This document shows positions 3,001 to 64,000 of a stretch of DNA of 64,000 bases, one piece after another. How positions within the stretch are numbered: position 1 is the stretch's first letter; each line of letters opens with the position of its first letter. The position numbers and the translations under genes were made by a program. Source of the DNA: Cystobasidiomycetes sp. EMM_F5 (Eukaryota); assembly GCA_051047955.1 (NCBI GenBank), contig JBPGPT010000009.1, positions 248,001 to 312,000 on the forward strand, in the 5' to 3' direction. The notes under the pieces are model-generated. The model was not told the DNA's origin. It worked only from the letters and a program-made list of their open reading frames with translations, and ran no database searches.

Positions 3001-3343
3001 AGTAGCTTCTTGAGGGGTTGCGCCTAGGAGCTGCAGAAAAGAAACAACGCGCTATGCACAAGGCCTAAGATTTCATAAAACTATGGCCGAAAGTGGACGA
3101 TTTGGCGAGGACGACGACGAAACTGCAGAAAGCGGGAATCCAGGCTGCCGCCGGGTGGAGCGCGACTCGGAAGAGTATGTGTTGTTGCTGCATGCATGCA
3201 GAATGGGCAGAAAGGCAGTTGCGGCCCGAGCATCAATGGGCTTGACGGAAAGGTGCAGTCCCGTTGTTCGTTCCAAGAGAGGGCGGTCGCAGTTTGCTCG
3301 GACACCTACAACTCCACAAGGCTGACCCGCCTCGACTAACAAC

Positions 3344-4094
3344 ATGGTATGCTTTTACGTGCTCATTCGTAAATCCTTGCACGGCTGACCGGGACTCGCT
3401 GGTCACAGGCTGCAAATACGCAAGTGACGGCCATTCACAATGTCCAAGTGATTTCCGGTCAGGCTGACGTTGACAACACTATACAGATCCGGTATACAGA
3501 CGCTGTTGGATGCGGAGAAGGAGGCCGCAAAGATTGTGCAGAAAGCCAGAGAGTGTGAGTTGGCCCTGCGACCAATTGAATAGACCTGCCAGCTGGGCCA
3601 AACATCCGTCCAGGCAGGCTGAAGGCTGATATTTTACCTCCGTGTATGATGTCCCCTTCGTATGCGCCGGGTGCTACGCCATAGACCGCAATCAAAGGGT
3701 CAAGGACGCCCGCGGCGAAGCTGCCAAGGAGATTGACGCCTACAAGACGAAACAGGAGAACGAATTCAAGGCCTTCGAGAAATCGGTGTGTGAAGTTGCT
3801 CTGCCTACGCACACATCTTCAATCTGACGTGTTCGCACTACCCCGGCCTTGCAGCACTCGGGCGATAACGATTCCATGCAATCCGACCTCGACAAGCGTA
3901 CTGAGGAGCAACTCTCGACGATACAGTCACAATTTGATGGTAATCGCAAGGTAGTCGTGGATAAGCTTCTGTCGAGGGTACTCGAGGTCAGCTTTCACTG
4001 GTTTTAACGCGGATCGCCCAGCTGAATATCGTATCTTGACCAGGTCGAGGCTTCACTGCATCGCAATTACAAGAAGCCGCAGACGTCTATGTAA
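3344..4094 (+). CDS. VMA10: V-type ATPase subunit G
   Basis: Spliced product MAANTSGIQTLLDAEKEAAKIVQKAREYRNQRVKDARGEAAKEIDAYK...LHRNY. Has an ATG-only first coding exon and an 11-nt exon at 3409-3419. Confidence 0.93.
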
Positions 4095-51906: not shown

Positions 51907-52481
51907 ATGAATGCTCCAAACAGATTCGAGCTGCATGTGCTCAACGATGGGGAATCAAAGTCAGTAGAGCATTGAATGCCTCTGCAAGTGCAACATGACT
52001 TACCTGACCTGCTCTTGCGTGCAGAATTCTGGTCGAAGAAGACACCAAGATCCCCAACGCGGCAACCGTAATTATCAACAAGGAGGATCATACGCTGGCT
52101 GGCATGCTTCGCAGTCAGCTGTTGCAAATGGAACACGTCCTCTTTGCCGGCTACAAAGTACCTCACCCCCTAGAACCGCGCTTCATCATCAAGATCCAGA
52201 CGACTGCCGAGTCTACACCCATTCAAGCTGTCCAGGAAGCGTGCACTGCGCTCATCACACTTCTAGCTCGGATAAAGGACGAATTGCAGAGGGAATTTGA
52301 TACGGCTAAAGCTATGGGAACGGTCGCTCCCCCAACAGCTCTCGGCGTGCAAGCGCAGTATGGCCAGACGAGCACACGGCCAGCCGACGGCATACAGCCA
52401 GAAGGCATATACGGCGCAACCGCAGCAAACCCGTACGATGCAGAGGGTATCCCCGCATCCGGTTTCTCCGAGTTTATCTGA
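51907..52481 (+). CDS. RPB11: RNA polymerase II subunit Rpb11
   Basis: MNAPNRFEL..EDTKIPNAA..KEDHTLAGMLRSQLL..VLFAGYKVPHPLE. Confidence 0.96.
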
Positions 52482-52642
52482 TGTTTACGGAATGATGACA
52501 ACAAGCAGGAGGTCTGTTGCAACTCCACTAAATGCAGTACAGGTACAGTCTGTATGCAGCATGATGACTGTGTATCCGAGGTACTACTCTTACTTGACTG
52601 CCAACCGTGTTGTCGTAATATACAAACAGCAACGTACAAACA

Positions 52643-53328
52643 TCATGACATGGTCGCATCCTCTTGCTTCTCCGCTTGCGGCCGCGTCTTCATTGCACGC
52701 ACATCGTCCAGCGTCAAAGGTTTCGTTTCTGTCGTGTCGTAGTCCCCTTCGGCAACATCTGCCTTGTATTTTTCGTCGATAGTCCGGAAGATGACTTCGA
52801 GCGCATCTATTCCCTTATGAACAGCATCTACGGCGGACTTGCCATCTACAGGGACAGAATGTGATGGAAGCGAGGCGCCATCATGGAGGAATCAGCATTG
52901 GTTTCGGAGAGTGAGTGGCATGAAAAGAAAGTATGCTACTGACCATGCATCTGTACACGCAGGTGGATCTTAGGTTCAGACGGATGTGGTGCGCTGTATC
53001 CACAGAATTCAACATCCGGGCTGATTTGCAGGCATTGTCAGCTCCATGACGCAAACCATCCTCCGTTCACCAAATTCTGTTCGAGCCCACTTCTTCATGA
53101 TTGCCCAGCGCAGACTGTTTCCAAGCGTATGATCTTCATTGTGGATGCAGAATGTGCATTCGCTGCCGTCTGGAGCTGCCCCCGGTAGCTTTCAAGGCGT
53201 GTACAGGGTTACGATCAGTCTTGCTCTGCGGACACCAGTTGGTTTGTTTTCCGTACAATTTCGACTTTGGGTCCACTTCCTTGCGGCGCGAGTGCTGCCC
53301 TTTCGCGGGGGTCGTCTAGCCTTTCCAT
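52643..53328 (-). CDS. RPC19: RNA polymerase I/III shared subunit AC19 (POLR1D); missed by the ORF track
   Basis: Four exons spliced by hand: MERLDDP..KVEI|LPGAAPDGSECTFCIHNEDHTLGNSLRWAIMKN|PDVEFCGYSAPHPSEPKIHLRVQMH|DGKSAVDAVHKG. Confidence 0.95.
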
Positions 53329-53392
53329 GCTTTATCGAGCGCTTTGGCTGGTCATCGGAAAAGCCGTGCTGCGTCCAACCTGAAACTGCGAC

Positions 53393-53516
53393 CACTGCAG
53401 AACCGGGCTGTATTTTGAAAGGGTCAAAAAGGGCATGAAAGACCAAACAGCCTTGCGCCAGTCCCAAAGCCGTTGTGCAATAGTCGAGCAATAGCTGAAC
53501 AATTACATATGATTTT
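53393..53516 (+). repeat. Left imperfect terminal inverted repeat / subterminal region
   Basis: GCAGAACCGGGC (53397-53408), GAAAGACCA (53437-53445), TTGTGCAATAGTCGAGCAATAG (53473-53494) and TATGATTTT (53508-53516) all recur inverted and in the same order at 62612-62780. Confidence 0.75.
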
Positions 53517-53531
53517 TGTAGCAATTGCTCG

Positions 53532-53692
53532 TTGCCTTCATTACTCTTGCCCTTGACTTGCGCTTCCCTTGCACAGGTCTTGCGCCCCCATTGCCTTTGC
53601 CTTGCTGTAGCAATTCAAAGCTATTGTTCACGCATCAACATTGCCTTCCCTTTGCCTTGCTTCGGTCTGGCAAAAGTCCACTGCTTTGCCTT
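53532..53692 (+). repeat. Cluster of short subterminal repeats TTGCCTT
   Basis: Copies at 53532, 53591, 53597, 53641, 53652 and 53686. Confidence 0.6.
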
Positions 53693-53842
53693 GTACGACC
53701 TTTCCCAATAGTAGCATATGGTGGCGAAGGGTCAATGCACGCGACAGGAAGACGCAGCAATAGACGGCAGGAAGCTAGTTGATTACACCGTCACGTTGTT
53801 CTACAATCACAAAATCACACTTTGATGTTCTCTGCTTTTGCT

Positions 53843-55532
53843 TCACAGATATTTGGCGACCTTAGCCATGTTACGGTACCTTGCAATGCTAGCTGCCTCC
53901 GCCTTGTCCACGACCTTGCGTCCCATTCCAGCATAAAATGCTTGCCCTTTGCAGGGAGGCTCGCATCCACCGCAGTGACCGATATTGACGTGCTGGTAAA
54001 GGTCGTTGCTGCCTTCCAGGTTGACGAAAATTCGATGAGGCTGCCGGGAAACAAGCACGTCAGCGCAGAAGTGACATTGCCAAAGTATGTGCTCACAGTC
54101 CGTGCACATTTCTGACGACGAATATTCCGCTTGGGACTCTCGATGTGAATATGACTCGGAGTGAGGCAGGAGGTGTGGTGGCAAAGGTGCGAAAGATGCA
54201 GACTACCTTTGGCCTTTTGGTTTGCTTTGCGATACTTGCGCAGATCAGGATGCCTGCCATTCTGCATCAGCCACAGTTGACGTGCTGATGAAATTGCGCT
54301 CACTTCGGACCGTACTTCGCAACGGCGAGTACCTTATGAAGCGTCAATGTTTTGAAGCCTTTTATAGTCAGAGTTGGGTAAGCGCCCTAGCAAATGAGTA
54401 GATTAGCAAAATCATACGTCTATGTTATGTGTGTCAGAGAAGCTCACGGCTTGATTGGCGCCCATCATCAAACAGCCATGAGATAATGGCAGTTTGACGG
54501 CAGCAGGGCGCTGACCCCACTTGCTCGCCTGTTTGGCGATGGCATCCAGGGCTTGGTTCTTGCTCAGGTGATACCAATCCTTCTTTGCGTCTTTCGCCGG
54601 TGGAGTGATTTCCGGCGATGGCTGTAGTTGTGGGGCCGATGGAGATCCTCTAGGCGGGGTCGACAGAACGCGGGCGGGTGGCCGCGAGATGACAAAGACC
54701 TCAGTCTTAGACGGTGTCTCAACCCGCACTCGAATTGGCGATTTAATCCTGGAGATTTTGCGAGCTTGAACGTCTCTGGCCGGCGGCGGTGTGTGCGGAA
54801 TTGCCGCTTTGACGACGACTGGGGATGGAGACTGCGGATGAGCCTTGACAACGACATCTGCTTCCACGAATCGCGTGTGCACAGGGGTAACTTTGACATT
54901 TTCTGAGCGAAAAGACAGTCAGGCAAGACCGACTGAAGATTGCGGAAAATCATACCTTTTTCTTCGATTATTTGTAGACCGGCACGGTCTAAGCAAGTGT
55001 GACACACTTTCTGTGCATCTCTGACGGCATCGTAAGCTTTGTCCAGAGCTTTCGTGAGCCTGGCTGGGTCTTTGCCATAGGCATGTTCAGCAACCTGCAA
55101 TCTGGCCAAGTTGCTGCATAATTCGGCCGTCTCTTGCTGCAGATCTTTGACGAGGATGACCAACTGTGTCGTATTATAGGGATGGCGATGGTCCTTAATA
55201 GGCCGGATTTTGCGCTGCGGCGAGGTCGACTGCTGGCGGCCAGAAAGACGGCTGAAAGCCTGAACGTGTGCTGGACTGCGCACTTTGCGATGTGCGTTGG
55301 TTGCAGTACTGTCTAGTAGTGTATGCATGCTGTCGACGGTATGTCGTCCAGCAGCGTGATGCCCATGCAAAGAGGAAAGAGGAAATTTGGGTGACCACAC
55401 CGAAATCGAGCAGAAGTCGAGGACAGTGCGCTGTGGCTGCACACATCGAACGTTAACGTGTGATTTTCCCAGATTACGTCGTCGTACAAGTCGTAGCTTC
55501 TTCTGCTTTGCCAAAATCCCTTGTCTGATCAT
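53843..55532 (-). CDS. His-Cys box / His-Me finger (I-PpoI-like) endonuclease A with long basic, Pro-rich N-terminal extension
   Basis: Exons ..54956, 54902-54448, 54386-54304, 54253-54097 and 54040-53843 splice in frame to GCLMM..GAYPTL..LHKVLAVAK..SHLCHHTSCLTPSHIHIESPKRNIRRQKC..HCGGCEPPC. Start uncertain (55532 or 55329). Confidence 0.8.
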
Positions 55533-55729
55533 GGAGTCCTCGAGGACTGTTGACGGCAGCTCGTCCTGTGCGTGCTGCACGGAAAAATGGAAAAGACCAT
55601 GTGGATCCTGGCGTCTAGTCTTGGACAAAAACCAGCGTCCCTTGCCTGCTGCTGTCTGTCTAGCTGCTGCAGCTGTACTGCCCGGTATCCGTCTATTTTG
55701 GCTGGCCGGCGGTCACGTGCTCGAAAAAA

Positions 55730-56538
55730 ATGGACGACACTGCAGCTCAGCTGAAAGCACTGTCAAAACTCACGCAAGAAGAAGCGAAGGCTGCAATCAA
55801 GAGAATTAGAGACGGAGGCTTGGTTGGAGACGTCATGTATAAGCCAGCTGTCGTAATCCCCATTACGGATTGTATCTTGGCTCAGCCGACAGACCCAGTC
55901 AGTTGAAGTTCATCAAAATCACACGTGTATGTTCAGTACTGATGATTGGCAGGAGTGGAACGGCGGCTATATGACCATCAAGGTCAAATCGGGATGCTCA
56001 GACTTTGTCCATCGCGTGCTAGTTGTGGCGAAAGGGTGGGAACGAAATCTACGATGCTCAGCAGAGCCTCGCTAAACGTACTATGCCAGAAAAACACATG
56101 TCAAAGCTCTGATGCAAGCAGGAAACGACGCATCGCACCGATGTCACAACGTGTTGTGTCTGAATCCTGACCACATCGAGGTGGAGACGCATGCGGAGAA
56201 CGCAGCTCGTAAGATCTGCTCATCAAGAGTCAGCCTTCTTATAGTGATACCGGAGATGCCCGTTGACTCACTGTTGCATCCAGTTAATGTACCTCGTACA
56301 GATTGAAGATCAAGATTACATCGTCGCTCCGCCAGAATGTGCACACAAGCCTGAATGCATCCCTAGATTTGTAGAACTCGACTGTGAACGCGTCTTGTCA
56401 GACCAAATGAGGGCAAAGGTAGCTGCACTTCGAGAGTATCAGGCTGAACTTGGCCGAAGTCCCAGTAAGGTTCAAGTCACCCGTAAAGGGAAATCGGCGA
56501 CAGAATCAGAGTGGAGCACCGATGAGGAGGGACGTTAG
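55730..56538 (+). CDS. His-Cys box / His-Me finger (I-PpoI-like) endonuclease B (~210 aa)
   Basis: Exons 55730-55897, 55953-56035, 56090-56228 and ~56284-56538 give DCIL..GGYMTI..VHRVLVVAKG..SHRCHNVLCLNPDHIEVETHAENAARKIC..ECAHKPEC. Confidence 0.85.
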
Positions 56539-56654
56539 GCTGCGGAGAGTCAGGCAGAGAGTCAAAATAAAATCACACGTGTTCATTCGGAGTTCGAACT
56601 TCTTGCAGTCTTTAGTATGGCTGTGCAGCTTTGGCTGGTCGATTGCTCAGTCAA

Positions 56655-59600
56655 TCAAATTAGTCGTACTAGTCCTCGATTGAGATAGAATTGTCTGACG
56701 TTTGCCGGTAATACCGCATGATCTAGCTGAGTCGGAACGACATGCGGCGGAGGTTGGCTGCTGACAGTTCCCAGCGCGACGACGTGACCGAGAGGGGCGA
56801 AAGGTTCAAAGCGATATCGTTCCACAGGGCCTAGATTAGTCGGCTGGTTAGGCGTCTTGCACATCCAGTCAACCGAGAGGAACACGTGGTATCGGCTGGC
56901 CCACTTATGAGCGAAAATAGCTCTGACTGAGCACGGCGTGCCGACTTCATCGGTGCGGTTGATCAAAGTGAAGTCGCCAGTCGTGATAGTCACTCGGCGA
57001 TGCAACAGATTGTCGTACATAACGATTTTCTTGAAACATTTGATGCGACCAAGGTTGCCTGTGAGAAGAACTGCATTTCTGTCATAGAAAGCCGAATAGG
57101 CTTGTATGAGGCTATCCCTGAATTGCAAAATCTGTCGCATCGTGCCGACTTCTGCGTGCGATTTGCCGATGTCGTCAACGAAATTCGCCGCTTTGACCTC
57201 CTTCTTTGTCATCTCCGACACCAAACGGATATTGTTGAATCTGCAGAACAAGAATGTGTGATTTTCACGGGTGATCTATCGCATAGCAATGCATAGCTCA
57301 CCGGTCCGGAATGCTGACTATTGTGACCCCTTCTAAAACTGATTTGTCGAGGATCTGCTCGTTGTCCACTTCGACAATATTGTTGTCGTGATAGTATCCA
57401 GAGAGCAATGTCGGACATACTGCTTCGAGATCTAATATAAAGCGAGCTGTTTGGTCGACGTCGAGCTCCTTGCTGGTCTTGATGAGGCGCAACGCCTGAC
57501 CGATGTTGTCTTCGCGAATGAATGTGGAGCCAGTGTCTCGTTTGTTAGTTTTGCTCATCAGTCCCTTGGGCAAGCGATGAACACTTTCATCGATGGATAC
57601 GCTCGCATTTAACAGATTGCCCACAGCTCGAGCCGAGTCGGCCATATGTAGGGCCGTATGCATGTTGGGGAGCGCGTAATCAAGACCAAAGGGTTCCAGC
57701 AGTGCAGCCAGAGCGATCCGACATTGACGAGCTGTAAGATCCAGGTCGGCGTACATCTGCTGGGTAAATTCACGCTGCAGCGACAGCCACACGTGTCGAT
57801 GGATGAGCACGGCGACTGCAACGACTTCGCGGAGGACTACATCACTACCCTGCGCCTTGATTGTCAGTGCTTTTGGGCGAATACCCCTGTTGCGGACTGA
57901 TGGCATTATTATTGTCAAAACCAGGGGAAGTATCGATATCATGGCGACAGCTTCGTGCTGTGTATAGCTTCCGGCGTGCCCGATGGACCGAACAGAGGAG
58001 TATGATTTTGGCATCGGGAATCCGCCAGCTTTGCCTCTTGCCATCGCTTTGGAGATCGCATCGACGGCCGCTGGCGATAGGACATGCTCGACCAATGGGA
58101 TCAGAAAGCGGTCCTTTACGAGACCAGAGGAGTTAGCATGCGAGACGTCGACCGGAAATTGAGAGTGCGGGTCCACAAGGACTCCCGTCCGAATATAAGG
58201 GGATGATTTTTCAGCTAATCCATACCGTGTCAGTTGCTCTTTGCATGCTTTGTCCGTAGGCTGTTCGATTGCCTCTGCTCGAATGGATTCCATTGCACCG
58301 GCTTGCCGATGGCTCTTGAACAGCTCAACTGGACTCATCAGCATATCTCCTAGACTAGCTTTCGTCACCAGGCAAAACCGACAGCCACAAATGGCATTGG
58401 GCGACAGACATCCTGCCATACTGTTGGCCTCTGGCATGTCGAATCTCGCATAAGTCATGTCCAGATAGATATCATACTTGCGTCCTTTCAAATCGACTTC
58501 AAACGGCACGACCGCATGACGTGCCAGTTGGCGCAAGGAATGTTCGAACGCGTCGTAGAAATTGGCGCCTCCGTTGATCATCAGATCATCAGCCTGGCAT
58601 CCCAAAGCAGCGTACCGAACTCACCATATGGAGTATAGCCGTAGATGAAATGGTTCCGCATTTCGTCGCGCACCCGAAACGGTAGATCCGCTGGCATAAT
58701 GTAGAAACCACCTATAGCGTGATGTGCGGTCCTGAACGCACCAAACTTGTCGTAGTAGTGGGAGAGGTGTAACACAATGGTGTGATTTGAGTCCTCCTGC
58801 TCCAATTCTTCCATAGAGACAACGCCGTTCGCAAGTTCCAGTTCGGCTCGCGTGAAGGGCAAACAAGAAGATTGTGCAAAGCCCAGTTGCTGTTCGCTTG
58901 CTGGCCAATCTTTTCCCCAAATCACACATGTCTGTTAGTGGGGCATTAGCTGATTAGACGGAAGAGGCGATGGTTTACTTTCGTTGATCTGGTCTGTAGA
59001 ATCACTCTTGCGGCGCGAAATCTTCAGCTCGGACGTTGTCATTATATCTTCTATCAAAACTTCTTGCTCTTCGTCGACCAGTAGAAAGTACGGTCCCGCC
59101 GGAAAACCGATGCCCTCTTCGTACGTAGCTAGCAATTCCGCCCATTGTGCCGCATGTGGGCCAGATTGTAAAAACAGGATCAGCTCGGCTCGGGTCTTGA
59201 TAGGCTGTACATGAGCCGTGATTGCACCGTCCTTGTCGCCCTGACGGAAGATACCGGAGATCCGTCCGAAGTAGCGACGCTGTGCTTGCTGATATTCGAC
59301 AATGCTGCCTGGCCAAATCCAAGCTTGTAATACCAATGTATGATTTCAGCTCAATCGTAAGCGCCTGGTGATCTCTGAGCACGCACCTCCATCTTGCGCT
59401 CGCAGAGGATAATCCTGTCGCGAAGATGCTATGCTTTGCCACCATAGCTGGCCATGCCAGACTTCGTAACGCTTAGCTAATTTGATCCCCAATCCCTGAT
59501 GAAGCTGTCTGAAGAGATCTGGGTTGCGCAGGATACGTTTCTCGCAAAAGTCCGCTAAATCATACTGGAATGATATGGCGGTTTTAGTAGTTGGTCCTTT

Positions 59601-60388
59601 CCATGTCTTGGTACTTCTGACTTTGACGTTCACGGGCCGCTGCACGACCCTAGTAAGTTTGAGACTCGCCATAGACTTCAATAATGCTTTCTTGCTAACG
59701 GGGAGCTGTGATGGATCAAAATCAGGCAGGAGCAGGATTTCACGGAGTTGGGAATAAAGCCGCCGAGACAGCTGATTAGTAGAGACCCATATCGCGATGG
59801 CGAGGTTAGTCTTTGCTGATGGGCTCAGCGCCTGGGCATCATCGGCCTCTTCGCCAGGACCTTCACCCGGATCATCTTCGTCAAATCGCACATGATCATT
59901 CCAAACCACGTGCAGGGGCTCATGCACGCCCATGGAATTGTTCGATGCCGAGCTTCTTCCTCCGATGCTGCTCACAGAAGATTCGGTGTCGGAACATGTG
60001 GATTCGCTGGTATCGCTTTCGCTGACGCCAGGGTCGGAGAGAGAAACATCTTCGAATGCGGGATCTGCAAACACATTTTCCACCAGAAGTCGTGTCAGTC
60101 AAAGCTTTGGCTAACATATACGTATGATTTCGCACCTATAGCTCCGGCAGTCTCCACTGGTGCTGAGGCTTCGCCAGGGGGCAGTTCTTCAGGCCAGTAT
60201 CCATCGTCACCAACTCCGTAGTCCACATCATCCATGTCCATGTGTTCATTGACCACATCGACAGGCTCTGCGACTGATGCGCGCTCGACGGCTCGGCTCC
60301 GCTGTGCGCGCTTGCGGAGTTTGGGTTGCCGCAGAGGAACATCGCTACGACTGGTCGCATATATGTTGGACAGCTTGGATCCTGCCAT
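56655..60388 (-). CDS. DDE transposase, CMC/EnSpm(Plavaka)-like, ~1,100 aa, six exons
   Basis: Motifs WHGQLW, RAELEL, HYYDKFGAFRTAHHAIGGFY, FDMPEANSMAG..CGCRFC, DVSH, LPNMHTALH and SIDESVH. Exons can be joined in frame without stops; two joins need AAG or GAG acceptors. Confidence 0.8.
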
Positions 60389-60613
60389 CAGTAATGGTCA
60401 GTCTCGTTAGATTCTGCTGGAGATTTGACTTGTGATGTGTGCGGTCGAAGTCAACCTCATTTACGCGGACTTCATCAAACGGCTCCGCCACTTTGATGCG
60501 AAACCTGACTTGCATCAGTGGTCAATCTCGACACAACCCATCCAGCAAACCACGATCCTCTGACGGAAGCTCATGATGGACTGATTCCACCTATTGTCTC
60601 ATGCTCAGGCGTC

Positions 60614-62406
60614 ATGCCTTCCCGTAGCAGCTCTGGCCGCTCCAGCCAAAAGGACAAAAGCCCCGCTCGGGGCCCGGCTGGCCATTCACGTAAAGGTTCG
60701 AATGGTGCAAACGAGGATCTGACTGAAGTGGGTAGTGACTCGTGCTGCACAAACGGTTGTGTTGCCGTACTGACATTGCGTAGAATGATGGCAGCAGGAG
60801 GGATGGGACCAGGCGCAAGAGTACCAATGCAGTGACCCACTAACATCGACATATGATTTTAGCATAAAAGCTGACTGTGGGTGTGCGATACAGAACACTC
60901 GATTCGACGATCTTCTAGACGAAAATCGGCCCCTCCAGACAGACGCTCGCTCTCGCGTCAACGAAATCAGACAGGAGGTTGCGGACAACCGCCGGCAGAA
61001 GAAGACCAATGTTGTTGGAAGTTCGGACACATCGGATAGCGAGGAACAAGAATCCGACAGACGAGAGGCTGTCATTAACTTTAGCCAAGATGCACCCGAT
61101 TCCTCTCAGAGCGGCCGGCCGCTGCAGGCTGTACCACCCTCCCCAAGGGGGCAGCGTCGGCGTCAGCCTGTTACAGCAGCTACATCGTCCAAGCGCAAGG
61201 CCACAGAGTCAAACGTCGACTCGTCAGCAGAGGCTGATGCGGAAGAGGCCGATGATCCAGCCTCACACAAACGTGCCTCGAAGAAGAACAAGAAAAAGGC
61301 AACAGGGGCAGAGGTGACTTACAAAGCAACTTCTGATGGTCGCAAATGGACTTCCAAGCAACGTGGAACTCCCACTGATGTGGTGAGCGGAACTTAGACG
61401 TGCGATTTTGATAAAATACTGATCTGGACTAGTACAGTACGATGGCCTTGGTGCAGAACTCAAGACATATATGAACAACTACTTTGCGTACAAGGCTGTG
61501 TGGGGAGATGAAGACATACATACCATCCTGAGCTGCCTTCAACAAGGCGAAGGTCTGGAAGCGCTGGGCTGGGATTTTCAAACCGATCAAGGTCTATTTG
61601 TGAGCTTTCGAATGGTCTGACGGACCGTATCTGACTCAATGTGGCAGCATCATTTGAAAGGCAAAATGCTGGCGTACCGTAGCACACAGCAGGTGAAATT
61701 ATTGAAAGCCGCGTCTGAAATCGCCGTCAAATTTCTTCGAGACCTCTCGGCTGGCAAGGAATATCTGGAAGGAGAGTGCGTCACAAGCGTTTGCCCGGCA
61801 CAGCATAATACCAACGTACGATTTTGCAGAGATACCCGTGATTCTGACGACCACAGTCCCATACTTCCCAACTGGGCTCAGGTCGTCAAACTAGTGCAGA
61901 CGGATGAAGTGGTCAAGACTATATTGTCCGCAATTCTGCCAGGAATCAATGTCGCTGCCGTATGGAACCCTCGCACGGAGCAAGAGATTGAAGCGGAAGC
62001 GGAGCACAAATTCAAAATGAAATTGACCCAATTGGCTTTATTTTTGGTCAGATGCGAGGCCTGGCGACTACGTAGCCAGTACAAGGTCATCAGTGGGAGA
62101 GTAGTTGAGGTACGAGATCTGTACGGCGATGAATACATGATGATCTAAAAGCATGGTTGATATTCGTAGAGAGGGAAATCACGAAATTGGGATGGAAGCA
62201 CTATTTCAGGCATGCTGCTCAGTTTCTCCACGTCCAAGACCGCTGTCGTCGACACTAGCGGCGATCCAGTCTTCTTTCCCATAGCGGAGCGCACTGTCTC
62301 TCGAACCAGACATGACAAATTTGTCGACGGCGACGAGTGTGGATTGGATGACATGGAGTTTGTAGACGGCGAGCTGAGAATGAAAGAGACAATAGCGGAG
62401 GGTTAA
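60614..62406 (+). CDS. Element accessory protein (multi-exon, basic/acidic low-complexity N-terminal half), divergent from the transposase
   Basis: Spliced MPSRSSSGRSSQK..; long open exon from ~60894 to ~61381 with NLS-like KRASKKNKKK; further exons to a stop at 62406. Family not recognised. Confidence 0.65.
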
Positions 62407-62611
62407 AGCGTCCATAAACGAACGGCCTGCAGAGGTTCTTCAGTGTGTACACAGTCTGAGCGTCGTTGTTTACTAAATTTGCAACAAATGCTGCATCGGG
62501 AAGGCTTTTGGTAGCACTGCGACAACATTGTGAATGCTAATCGGCCTTGTGTGCCCAGACCGCATCGCATGCGCTGGACAGGCAGATAGGTGGCGCAAGA
62601 CTTGGGCAAGT

Positions 62612-62784
62612 AAAATCATACAATTACATTCTGACAATCTACACACAACGCGTGTCAAACTCTTGCACGTCTACTGCACAAGCATTGCCCGGTCATTGCT
62701 GAGCTATTGCGAAAGTCTGTCTAGCTCTTGCCGATCTTGCGTGGTCTTTCCTGGTCTGTCGCAAAAAGGCCCGGTTCTGCTATG
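62612..62784 (-). repeat. Right imperfect terminal inverted repeat / subterminal region
   Basis: AAAATCATA (62612-62620), an 18/22 match block (62660-62681), TGGTCTTTC (62742-62750) and GCCCGGTTCTGC (62769-62780) mirror the left end. Confidence 0.75.
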
Positions 62785-64000
62785 TCGGACAAAAGCGGAA
62801 GCTAGAGGAAGTTGACATTAAAAGGGCTGGCGTGCGAAAGCTAACGTTTGGATAGACTGATTGTTCACTTTGCACAGCTTTAGACTTGTTTGAAGACGCA
62901 GCAAGCGTAGTAAAGACTGCGAAGTTGGACTGCGGCTTTTGCGGGACTCGCAGCAGCTGGAGATTATCCTGACCTTCCCACTGTCATCTTTCCTCTGACA
63001 CACAAGCATTCAGTTGCTGCTTGTCTGCCTTCCTTTACACGTCTGAGACCTTCTACTATATACCGGCAGCTGGATCTGCCTTCTTCACTTAAGCGCTGGT
63101 CGACAAGCACATAACCCCGACTGATCCCACCATTTCGAATCCTTAACCATCTCGTTCCAAAATCACACAATCTTCTGTCGACCTTTGCAACCATGCTTCA
63201 TTCGATAAACGGCCCTTTTCCGATGGCATCGCAAGTCGTTCCGCCCGCTCAGCTGCCCGTGCGCTCCGGTAGGTGGCGGAAACACCCAAAGCTTCGCTCA
63301 ACAGTCTGACACTCGAGCCTTTTGCACCGATTTTGCGACGAATTTCTCTCGCTCGCTTGTCCGCACTCCCTTTGCACTCTGCTCCACCCATCTTCTGTTG
63401 CGTCCTGCGTACCCTCTGAATGCGCACAAACCGTCTGTCTCGGGACGCCATTACCCTAAACATCTGACTGAGCTCCGGCTTGTTGGCGACGCATTCTGCC
63501 CGATAACGCACGTCACTATTCCAACACTGTGATTCTGCGAGGACAGCTTGGGCACCAGGGCCAGTCAATGCGACTCTGGAAACGCCTGTTCCACTGCATA
63601 CCACGCACTGGTCACACAACGGCCAACAGAGGGCATACATAACAGGCTATACGCCGACAGTACGGCCCTTCACACTTTGGCCGCAGAAGATCCCATTGCA
63701 TAATTTGCGTGCTTTGGAGAAGGGCTGTTTCGGTCTCACCCATCCTCTGCAAAGCGCTGCCGTCGGTCGCTATACTCAAAAAATCTCGCGACGAGGGCCA
63801 ATTAGCCGAACGCATCATCCGCACGCTTTCTTCGCGAAGCGCACACTGCCACCAGCGCCCTTCTCTGCAAATAGACAGTCAGGTCTACCTGCGCCGCATT
63901 TCTCTCCCTCGCATCTGGATCGCAAGCTTGCAACTTATCGCAAGCGTCACTTTGCCTTTACGGGCGCCCGTTCCGGGCCGCATCGAATTTCGCAAAAGCC

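Follow-up and report, generated by a model that had tools for sequence, protein, structure and literature searches.

This report concerns a block of 9392 nt (53393..62784, no strand assigned) in the genome of the fungus Cystobasidiomycetes sp. EMM_F5. The block lies in a stretch of 64,000 nt (contig JBPGPT010000009.1, positions 248,001 to 312,000 of the forward strand), which is called the window here and to which all coordinates refer. Four intron-bearing genes without internal stop are enclosed by inverted ends and share an element-specific sequence motif. Two of the genes, EndoA and EndoB, encode His-Cys-box proteins of the type of the homing endonuclease I-PpoI, the third encodes a RAG1-like transposase (Tnp), and the fourth, ORF4, is an orphan accessory gene. 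The gene content of the block, the family of the transposase and the family of the nucleases could be established. We consider the block to be, more likely than not, an intact-looking cut-and-paste DNA transposon that carries the nuclease genes as cargo.

Gene models were built from stop-to-stop open reading frames (ORFs) and three-frame translations of 53200-64000. The genes are arranged as two divergent pairs in the order <-EndoA EndoB-> <-Tnp ORF4->, with start codons 197 nt apart in the EndoA/EndoB pair and 225 nt apart in the transposase/ORF4 pair. EndoA (55532..53843, - strand) has five exons and encodes 489 aa. EndoB (55730..56538, + strand) has four exons and encodes 214 aa, or 208 aa with an alternative acceptor for intron 3. 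The transposase gene (60388..56655, - strand) has six exons and encodes 1137 aa, while ORF4 (60614..62406, + strand) has five exons and encodes 520 aa. All introns (16/16) have GT..AG borders and lengths of 47-71 nt, and they occupy 934 of the 9392 nt. An initial annotation, made from the sequence alone, had described four spliced genes without stops in two divergent pairs, and the models built by coordinates bear this out. The transposase model appears to be the best supported, as it is collinear with independent homologues over the exon junctions. For the Endo models, support comes from how their domain parts are ordered and from an intron position common to both genes. The two divergent intergenic regions were compared for a common promoter element and none was found (best score 19, versus 17.2 ± 2.3 for shuffles). 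No tRNA genes were found, and the G+C content is about 51% across the entire window.

Both nuclease genes matched PF05551, the zinc-binding loop of homing endonucleases, EndoA with 50.1 bits (E 4e-13) and EndoB with 43.9 bits (E 3.3e-11), where the Pfam cut-off is 27. The catalytic His-Me cores were located by alignment to I-PpoI in exon 4 of EndoA (54097..54253, - strand) and exon 3 of EndoB (56090..56228, + strand). Using phmmer against PDB sequences, the EndoA core aligned to I-PpoI residues 95-125 and the EndoB core to residues 95-126. The E-values were weak (~0.06 each) because the queries were short, 83 aa for EndoA and 46 aa for EndoB. Equivalents of I-PpoI S97, H98, C100, C105, H110, E114, N119 and C125 are present in EndoA and EndoB alike. 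In the passages of Kojima and Bao (PMC9587614) that deal with I-PpoI, H98, H110 and N119 are catalytic motif residues, and S97 and E114 are conserved too. The zinc-site residues aligned in EndoA and EndoB are the equivalents of C100, C105, H110 and C125. The I-PpoI group has two zinc sites made up of eight His/Cys; for the C-terminal one, a Cys/His cluster in the last exons of both genes was recognized by eye only, and phmmer with the last EndoB exon gave no match. In the Atlas, which is based on a language model, the best cluster for the EndoB core was a PF05551 cluster (score 0.95, 195/256 features). 86% of this cluster is PF05551, and it is mainly eukaryotic with Ascomycota as the most frequent phylum. 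The two His-Cys-box nucleases of the initial annotation were thus recovered by the Pfam matches and the catalytic residues. They are real I-PpoI-type His-Cys-box proteins with intact catalytic residues as judged by alignment, and their function as nucleases is predicted on that basis.

Aligned with each other over 78 aa, EndoA and EndoB show 35% identity (E 5e-10), and on account of this low identity they are considered old, diverged paralogues. An intron occupies the same position relative to the domain in both genes, just 5' of the catalytic core (54304/54253 in EndoA, 56035/56090 in EndoB). Since the position was kept at 35% identity, the duplication would predate much of the divergence and postdate the intron. 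Outside the core EndoA has an N-terminal extension of ~340 aa (54448-55532, - strand), and its N-terminal exons gave no Pfam match. The extension has a basic start followed by a helical stretch and a proline-rich stretch. Its first 67 residues do not look protein-like, and Met at residue 68 may be the true start. No Rfam family, group I introns included, was found in 52500-64000 at E ≤ 1. Because there is no Rfam match and the introns are spliceosomal, EndoA and EndoB are read as free-standing genes rather than intron-encoded homing genes. A word-based search found no nuclease homologues with the EndoA ORF at near lengths or with the EndoA/EndoB core alignment at longer lengths. This search depends on shared 5-mers, so its negatives are weak.

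The transposase was searched against 1.84 billion representatives, using as query the 440-residue stop-to-stop ORF that contains the largest transposase exon. There were 128 relatives at E ≤ 1e-3, 32 at ≤ 1e-10 and 3 at ≤ 1e-30. The closest relative is 51% identical, and its cluster includes a protein of Cystobasidiomycetes sp. EMM_F5. Microbotryum silenes-dioicae, Ascobolus immersus and Orbilia/Drechslerella are the sources of other named relatives. Among the closest relatives are KAL7010296.1 (Cystobasidiomycetes sp. EMM_F5, locus tag EMMF5_000317), SGY56853.1 (Microbotryum silenes-dioicae) and paralogues in Ascobolus immersus and Orbilia. The spliced transposase is collinear with the homologues P0008 (residues 66-1069), P0023 (172-1137) and P0129 (535-1137, 46.5% identity), and this collinearity extends to the last residues. 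The DDE triad could be aligned, with D in both Asp columns of 9/9 full-length sequences and E in the third column, and the CxxC and HxxxH motifs aligned with the relatives as well. According to the relevant part of Kojima 2025 (PMC12730594), DDE plus CxxC plus HxxxH is a signature common to EnSpm, Mirage, Chapaev, Transib, Plavaka and RAG1, the 'CMCT' clade.

A sequence profile alone gave no meaningful match of the transposase family to a PDB relative. An AlphaFold2 model of the transposase core exon, made from 36 aligned sequences, reached a predicted local distance difference test score (pLDDT) of 86.7 and was compared with the PDB using Foldseek. Of the matches listed, every one as far as rank 42 is RAG1 or BbRAGL, the RAG1-like protein of amphioxus (probability 0.99-1.00). 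The best match has E 1.6e-4 and a template modelling (TM) score of 0.50, with TM scores of ~0.5 over ~350 columns. The matches that follow the RAG1 group are unrelated (probability ≤ 0.16). The CMC-like transposase proposed in the initial annotation is thus upheld by the DDE/CxxC/HxxxH alignment and by confident Foldseek matches that are confined to RAG1-type proteins. As modelled, the enzyme is assigned to the RAG1-like CMCT clade, where its neighbours are Plavaka and, in rust fungi, the Plavaka-like EnSpm families.

Plavaka proper was considered as the transposase family and dropped. The match of the transposase exon to the Plavaka family PF18759 is weak, 19.1 bits with a cut-off of 26.3, and the termini are unlike published Plavaka termini. 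Among the scanned relatives PF18759 was weak in 9/74, of which 3 reached the cut-off. Of the two kinds of profile pointed to in the initial annotation, PF05551 was therefore found in both Endo genes and PF18759 fell short. No relatives of the transposase were found in metagenome contigs. Intron 4 of the transposase (58569-58624, - strand), as modelled, has the acceptor GAG instead of YAG. Other GT..AG pairs tried by hand break the frame, and the chosen pair agrees with distant homologues.

The left terminal inverted repeat (53393..53408, + strand) starts with CACTG, the right one (62769..62784, - strand) ends with CTATG, and the left end is identical to the reverse complement of the right end at 14/16 positions. 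An exact 12-mer forms the inverted core (left copy 53397-53408) and occurs within the window only at the two ends. Nine other matches to the terminal core were found in the window at ≤ 2 mismatches, each with 2 mismatches. The termini are of the CA..TG type within inverted repeats, and CA..TG termini are described as usual in CMCT elements in the section of PMC12730594 on this clade. The earlier placement of the four genes inside one pair of inverted ends is borne out by the 14/16 termini and the 12-mer core unique to them. A stretch of 22 nt from the left end had no exact match in metagenome contigs. Slightly further inside, an A-run word, CAAAAAGG, is found at 53423-53433 and its complement at 62760-62772. 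The two lie in opposite orientation, 31 and 13 nt inside the termini. The word bears what we take to be a faint likeness to the nonamer of RAG/Transib signal ends, which may be chance.

A shared internal motif had been noticed in the initial annotation, and its copies, once aligned, give a consensus of 20 nt, AAAATCAYAC-N5-TGTTC. Across the window the core AAAATCAYAY is matched 12 times (0.69 expected), and 12/12 matches are confined to 53507-63168, with 11/12 between the ends. A position weight matrix (PWM) was built from the 12 core matches as seeds and applied with a threshold of ≥ 14 bits. It identified 18 copies between the ends, and these are distributed over each of the four genes and the two subterminal regions. 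Counting only matches that were not seeds, there are 7 in the 9.4 kb inside and 1 in the 54.6 kb outside.

Seven of the 18 copies are in introns: intron 2 of EndoA (54408..54428, +, 28.4 bits), intron 1 of EndoB (55915..55935, +, 28.8 bits), transposase intron 5 (57245..57265, -, 28.6 bits) and, as non-seed matches, transposase intron 3 (58918..58938, +, 19.9 bits), intron 2 (59327..59347, -, weak with 14.5 bits) and intron 1 (60111..60131, -, 22.3 bits), and ORF4 intron 2 (61389..61409, -, 18.9 bits). One copy spans exon 1 and the intron 1 donor of EndoA (54946..54966, +, 27.2 bits). Four are untranslated or subterminal, namely the left subterminal copy (53496..53516, -, 24.5 bits), one just 3' of the EndoA stop (53811..53831, +, 28.4 bits), one 3' of the EndoB stop (56569..56589, +, 26.4 bits) and the right subterminal copy (62612..62632, +, 25.2 bits). 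The remaining six are in exons as modelled: EndoA exon 1 (55447..55467, -, 28.5 bits), transposase exon 5 (57989..58009, -, 24.1 bits, and the non-seed 58190..58210, -, 19.7 bits), transposase exon 4 (58769..58789, -, non-seed and weak with 14.3 bits), ORF4 exon 2 (60840..60860, -, 25.0 bits) and ORF4 exon 4 (61805..61825, -, non-seed, 17.0 bits). If EndoA starts at Met 68, the copy at 55447 would be 5' untranslated. Introns are enriched in the motif (binomial p 0.001, with introns taking 934 of 9392 nt). The orientation of the copies follows the arm of the element, not the strand of the gene, with 5+/1- in the inner left arm and 1+/9- in the inner right arm (Fisher p 0.0076), and the two outermost copies, 53496 (-) and 62612 (+), are mutually inverted.

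We take the motif for a signal that acts at the DNA level and is linked to the element's geometry. Candidates for its binding are ORF4, the N-terminus of the transposase, or EndoA/EndoB. In En/Spm elements, TnpA binds subterminal repeats. Other identities for the motif were considered and rejected. A general intron signal of the genome was discarded on the confinement of the 12/12 core matches to 53507-63168. A U12-type or branch-point signal was rejected by eye, as copies run both with and against the direction of the genes and are found in exons too. A palindromic site for a homodimer was rejected because the centre is variable and the halves are unlike.

The reading of the block as one mobile unit depends on the joining of the nuclease genes to the transposase, and this unity is supported, not proven. 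The strongest internal argument is the motif: the four genes are taken as one unit because they have an element-specific motif in common. Several observations weigh against a single transposon. Each of the four genes was found only once in the window. The tetranucleotide distance of the block is 0.17-0.23, barely distinct from the 0.13-0.20 of host DNA, and compositional foreignness of the block was not seen by this measure. A clean target-site duplication (TSD) of 2-5 bp was not found, the flanks being GAC and TCG. The sole exact 3-nt candidate requires a 3-nt shift of the right end and is at chance level among the offsets tried; the duplication may have decayed. Two mismatches of the termini fall within the first 5 positions, and beyond 16 nt the arms are only loosely collinear. 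Of the collinear inverted ends described initially, what stood was the local alignment of the 500-nt ends (score 85, versus 35.7 ± 6.4 with a maximum of 64 in 200 shuffles), while likeness past the 16 nt was loose. Outside the ends the PWM found one seed (63159-63179, a core match 375 nt past the right end) and one new good match 50 kb away (3336-3356). The arm split used for the orientation test, 56900 between the convergent gene ends, was picked after the data had been seen, and with the four genes as units the orientation pattern alone has odds of about 1 in 8. The ORF4 model is based on open frames and splice signals and has no homologue support. PF05551 was fused to 0/74 transposase relatives (73 of the 128 matches plus one cluster member), a scan that could show fusion only and not linkage.

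Some of these points suit the view that the genes are neighbours and not cargo, such that the transposase gene, alone or together with ORF4, is a transposon remnant or a solitary gene, the Endo genes are free-standing selfish or host genes, and the 16-nt match marks no boundary. The absence of a TSD, of a second copy in the window and of a compositional break agrees with this view. Free-standing fungal PF05551 proteins do exist: the portion of the His-Me classification that lists them (Jablonska et al. 2017, PMC5714182) marks 62 eukaryotic members of the I-PpoI group (group 12) as Fungi, context not given. The best Atlas cluster of EndoB is mainly eukaryotic, with Ascomycota commonest. We nevertheless think it unlikely that the genes are mere neighbours, as the motif recurs in each of the four genes and in the two subterminal regions, with hardly any occurrence in the 54.6 kb of flank. 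Likewise, the 12-mer inverted core occurs at the two ends only, with the CA..TG expected for the transposase clade, and housekeeping genes start directly beyond the left end. The host-like composition could also be explained if the block were a former transposon, nucleases included, that has become fixed and immobile and is selected for a host function, its decayed ends being dead. Intact frames in all four genes stand beside imperfect termini and an unrecognizable TSD, and the transposase family is rare, with only the 3 relatives at E ≤ 1e-30. Such domestication seems quite unlikely to us, since the catalytic DDE, CxxC, HxxxH and terminal 12-mer are all intact and many motif copies are kept in both arms, which is unexpected after loss of mobility. 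Imperfect termini are moreover common in active elements.

A composite origin, in which EndoA and EndoB form a mobile unit of their own that entered a transposon of two genes (Tnp and ORF4) in its left arm, was judged highly improbable. The gene pairs are indeed separate divergent units with promoters that lack similarity, and EndoA and EndoB are related to each other and not to the transposase or ORF4. Yet no convincing inverted repeat brackets the nuclease pair alone, there is no direct repeat around it, no group I intron or other Rfam family surrounds it, and the same motif is present in both gene pairs. A single transposon with nuclease cargo is thus the reading that we retain.

The initial annotation treated this architecture as perhaps undescribed, which does not hold. 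KolobokP of animals encodes a DDD/E transposase together with an I-PpoI-like His-Me nuclease, as given in the relevant sections of Kojima and Bao 2022 (PMC9587614), and a 2026 review uses KolobokP as its example in the part on this topic (PMC13565253). Both KolobokP and the EMM_F5 element combine a DDE cut-and-paste transposon with a small I-PpoI-like His-Cys-box/His-Me nuclease that has catalytic residues. However, KolobokP has a Kolobok-superfamily transposase and TTAA duplications, whereas the EMM_F5 element is RAG1-like CMCT with CA..TG termini and flanks that are not TTAA. KolobokP has long terminal direct repeats and multimers, and no long direct repeats or multimers were found here in 52000-64000. 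KolobokP has one nuclease gene; the present element has a pair of diverged paralogues that contain spliceosomal introns, and EndoA has a long extension at its N-terminus. The hosts are animals in one case and a fungus in the other, and the EMM_F5 element adds the orphan ORF4 and the dispersed polar 20-nt motif. Relative to KolobokP the novelty is that this logic is met in a different transposon superfamily and a different kingdom; the nuclease is represented by two paralogues, and the orphan ORF4 and the polar dispersed motif come in addition. In the open-access literature KolobokP was the only transposon with a His-Cys-box nuclease that was found, Repbase, subscription journals and the supplementary sequences of the 2025 paper being outside the search. 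In the portions of a survey of fungal cut-and-paste elements (PMC5751038) that were at hand, no mention of nuclease passengers was found.

Among fungal elements the nearest comparison is with Plavaka and Plavaka-like EnSpm. The relevant part of Kojima 2025 (PMC12730594) describes Plavaka-like EnSpm families of Pucciniales that carry TET/JBP dioxygenases. As far as that part goes, the likenesses are termini of the CA..TG type, fungal hosts that include Pucciniomycotina, and multi-gene elements with an enzyme gene beside the transposase. The passenger here is a nuclease pair and not a dioxygenase. The termini are CACTG..CTATG, not the TGT..ACA or CATCA..TGATG given there for PlavakaA and PlavakaB, with a right side that is not CAC..GTG; the PF18759 cut-off was missed as noted above, and the 2-5 bp TSD was not seen. 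The endonucleases of I-PpoI type from group I introns in ribosomal DNA (rDNA) have in common with EndoA and EndoB the PF05551 domain, the catalytic His and Asn, the conserved Ser/His/Glu and the zinc-loop Cys. Unlike them, EndoA and EndoB are found outside a group I intron or rDNA, have spliceosomal introns and are situated inside a probable transposon. TnpB/OMEGA of IS200/IS605 and IS607 is a functional analogy only. It too is a transposon nuclease beside a transposase and is thought to aid persistence via break-induced repair. TnpB is RNA-guided and follows the element anywhere, whereas EndoA and EndoB would recognize DNA by protein contact, without a guide RNA.

This distinction bears on what the nucleases might do. 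The argument in the pertinent part of the 2026 review (PMC13565253) is that a protein-guided nuclease cannot follow a transposon to ever-new sites, that restorative homing at changing sites is nearly impossible with protein-guided recognition, and that such a nuclease is useful only if insertion is site-specific or the target is carried by the element. This weakens the proposal that the nucleases cut the empty allele, unless insertion is site-specific. In the passages of PMC9587614 on mechanism, the KolobokP authors propose cleavage in the repeats of the element or at abutted termini, followed by repair from the sister copy that restores or multiplies the element.

The RAG1-like transposase would cut at the CA..TG ends and move the element by cut-and-paste. 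EndoA and EndoB would neither choose the insertion site nor cut arbitrary empty sites. Their target for cutting or nicking would instead be an invariant sequence that the element itself brings along, with the polar 20-nt motif and the termini, paired or abutted, as candidates, and the break would be repaired from a sister or homologous copy, such that the element is restored, homogenized or amplified, as proposed for KolobokP. That the nucleases have an element-borne target is a possibility that we hold only tentatively. Cleavage of a specific empty site is given less weight than this, and the remaining probability falls to passenger or independent selfish genes without a role in transposition. 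Being asymmetric, the motif would be a better match for two unlike subunits than for a homodimer of the I-PpoI kind. In its most specific form the proposal is that EndoA and EndoB act jointly, for example as a heterodimer, as a site-specific nuclease or nickase on the arm-oriented 20-nt motif, and that the breaks start recombinational copying. We regard this form as speculative and doubtful.

If it is true, a RAG1-like cut-and-paste transposon would have a second, homing-like route to restore or multiply itself. Kolobok in animals and CMCT in fungi would then be unrelated superfamilies that recruited I-PpoI-type nucleases independently. KolobokP is so far the sole described transposon group with a protein-guided nuclease of homing type, and its model is a proposal. 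A second independent case would make the pairing of transposase and homing nuclease a recurring strategy and not a curiosity. Compared with KolobokP, the EMM_F5 case involves another superfamily (RAG1-like CMCT), another kingdom (fungi) and a second nuclease paralogue. It bears on a question raised in the 2026 review (PMC13565253, in the part cited above), the use of a nuclease of fixed specificity to an element that keeps changing its address. As a test system the element is compact: its four genes are small, its ends are defined and the candidate target of 20 nt is present in ~18 oriented copies. In addition, EndoA and EndoB may be new site-specific enzymes.

ORF4 had no Pfam match and no Atlas relative (a score of 0.80 is noise). 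The word-based search with exon 4 at longer lengths gave no homologues, which is a weak negative, and a single-sequence AlphaFold2 model was unusable (pLDDT 41).

Two host genes for RNA polymerase subunits of the Rpb11/AC19 type (PF13656) adjoin each other directly left of the element, at 52008-52481 (+ strand) and ~52643-53328 (- strand). The latter is the RPB11-like gene, and its putative start codon is 65 nt from the left end. On the right, a neighbour gene directed rightward seems to start at 63193, judging from open frames. The element appears to be inserted into a divergent promoter, otherwise of roughly 470 nt, between the RPB11-like gene and the gene that starts at 63193. The motif copy at 63159 precedes this putative start by 34 nt.

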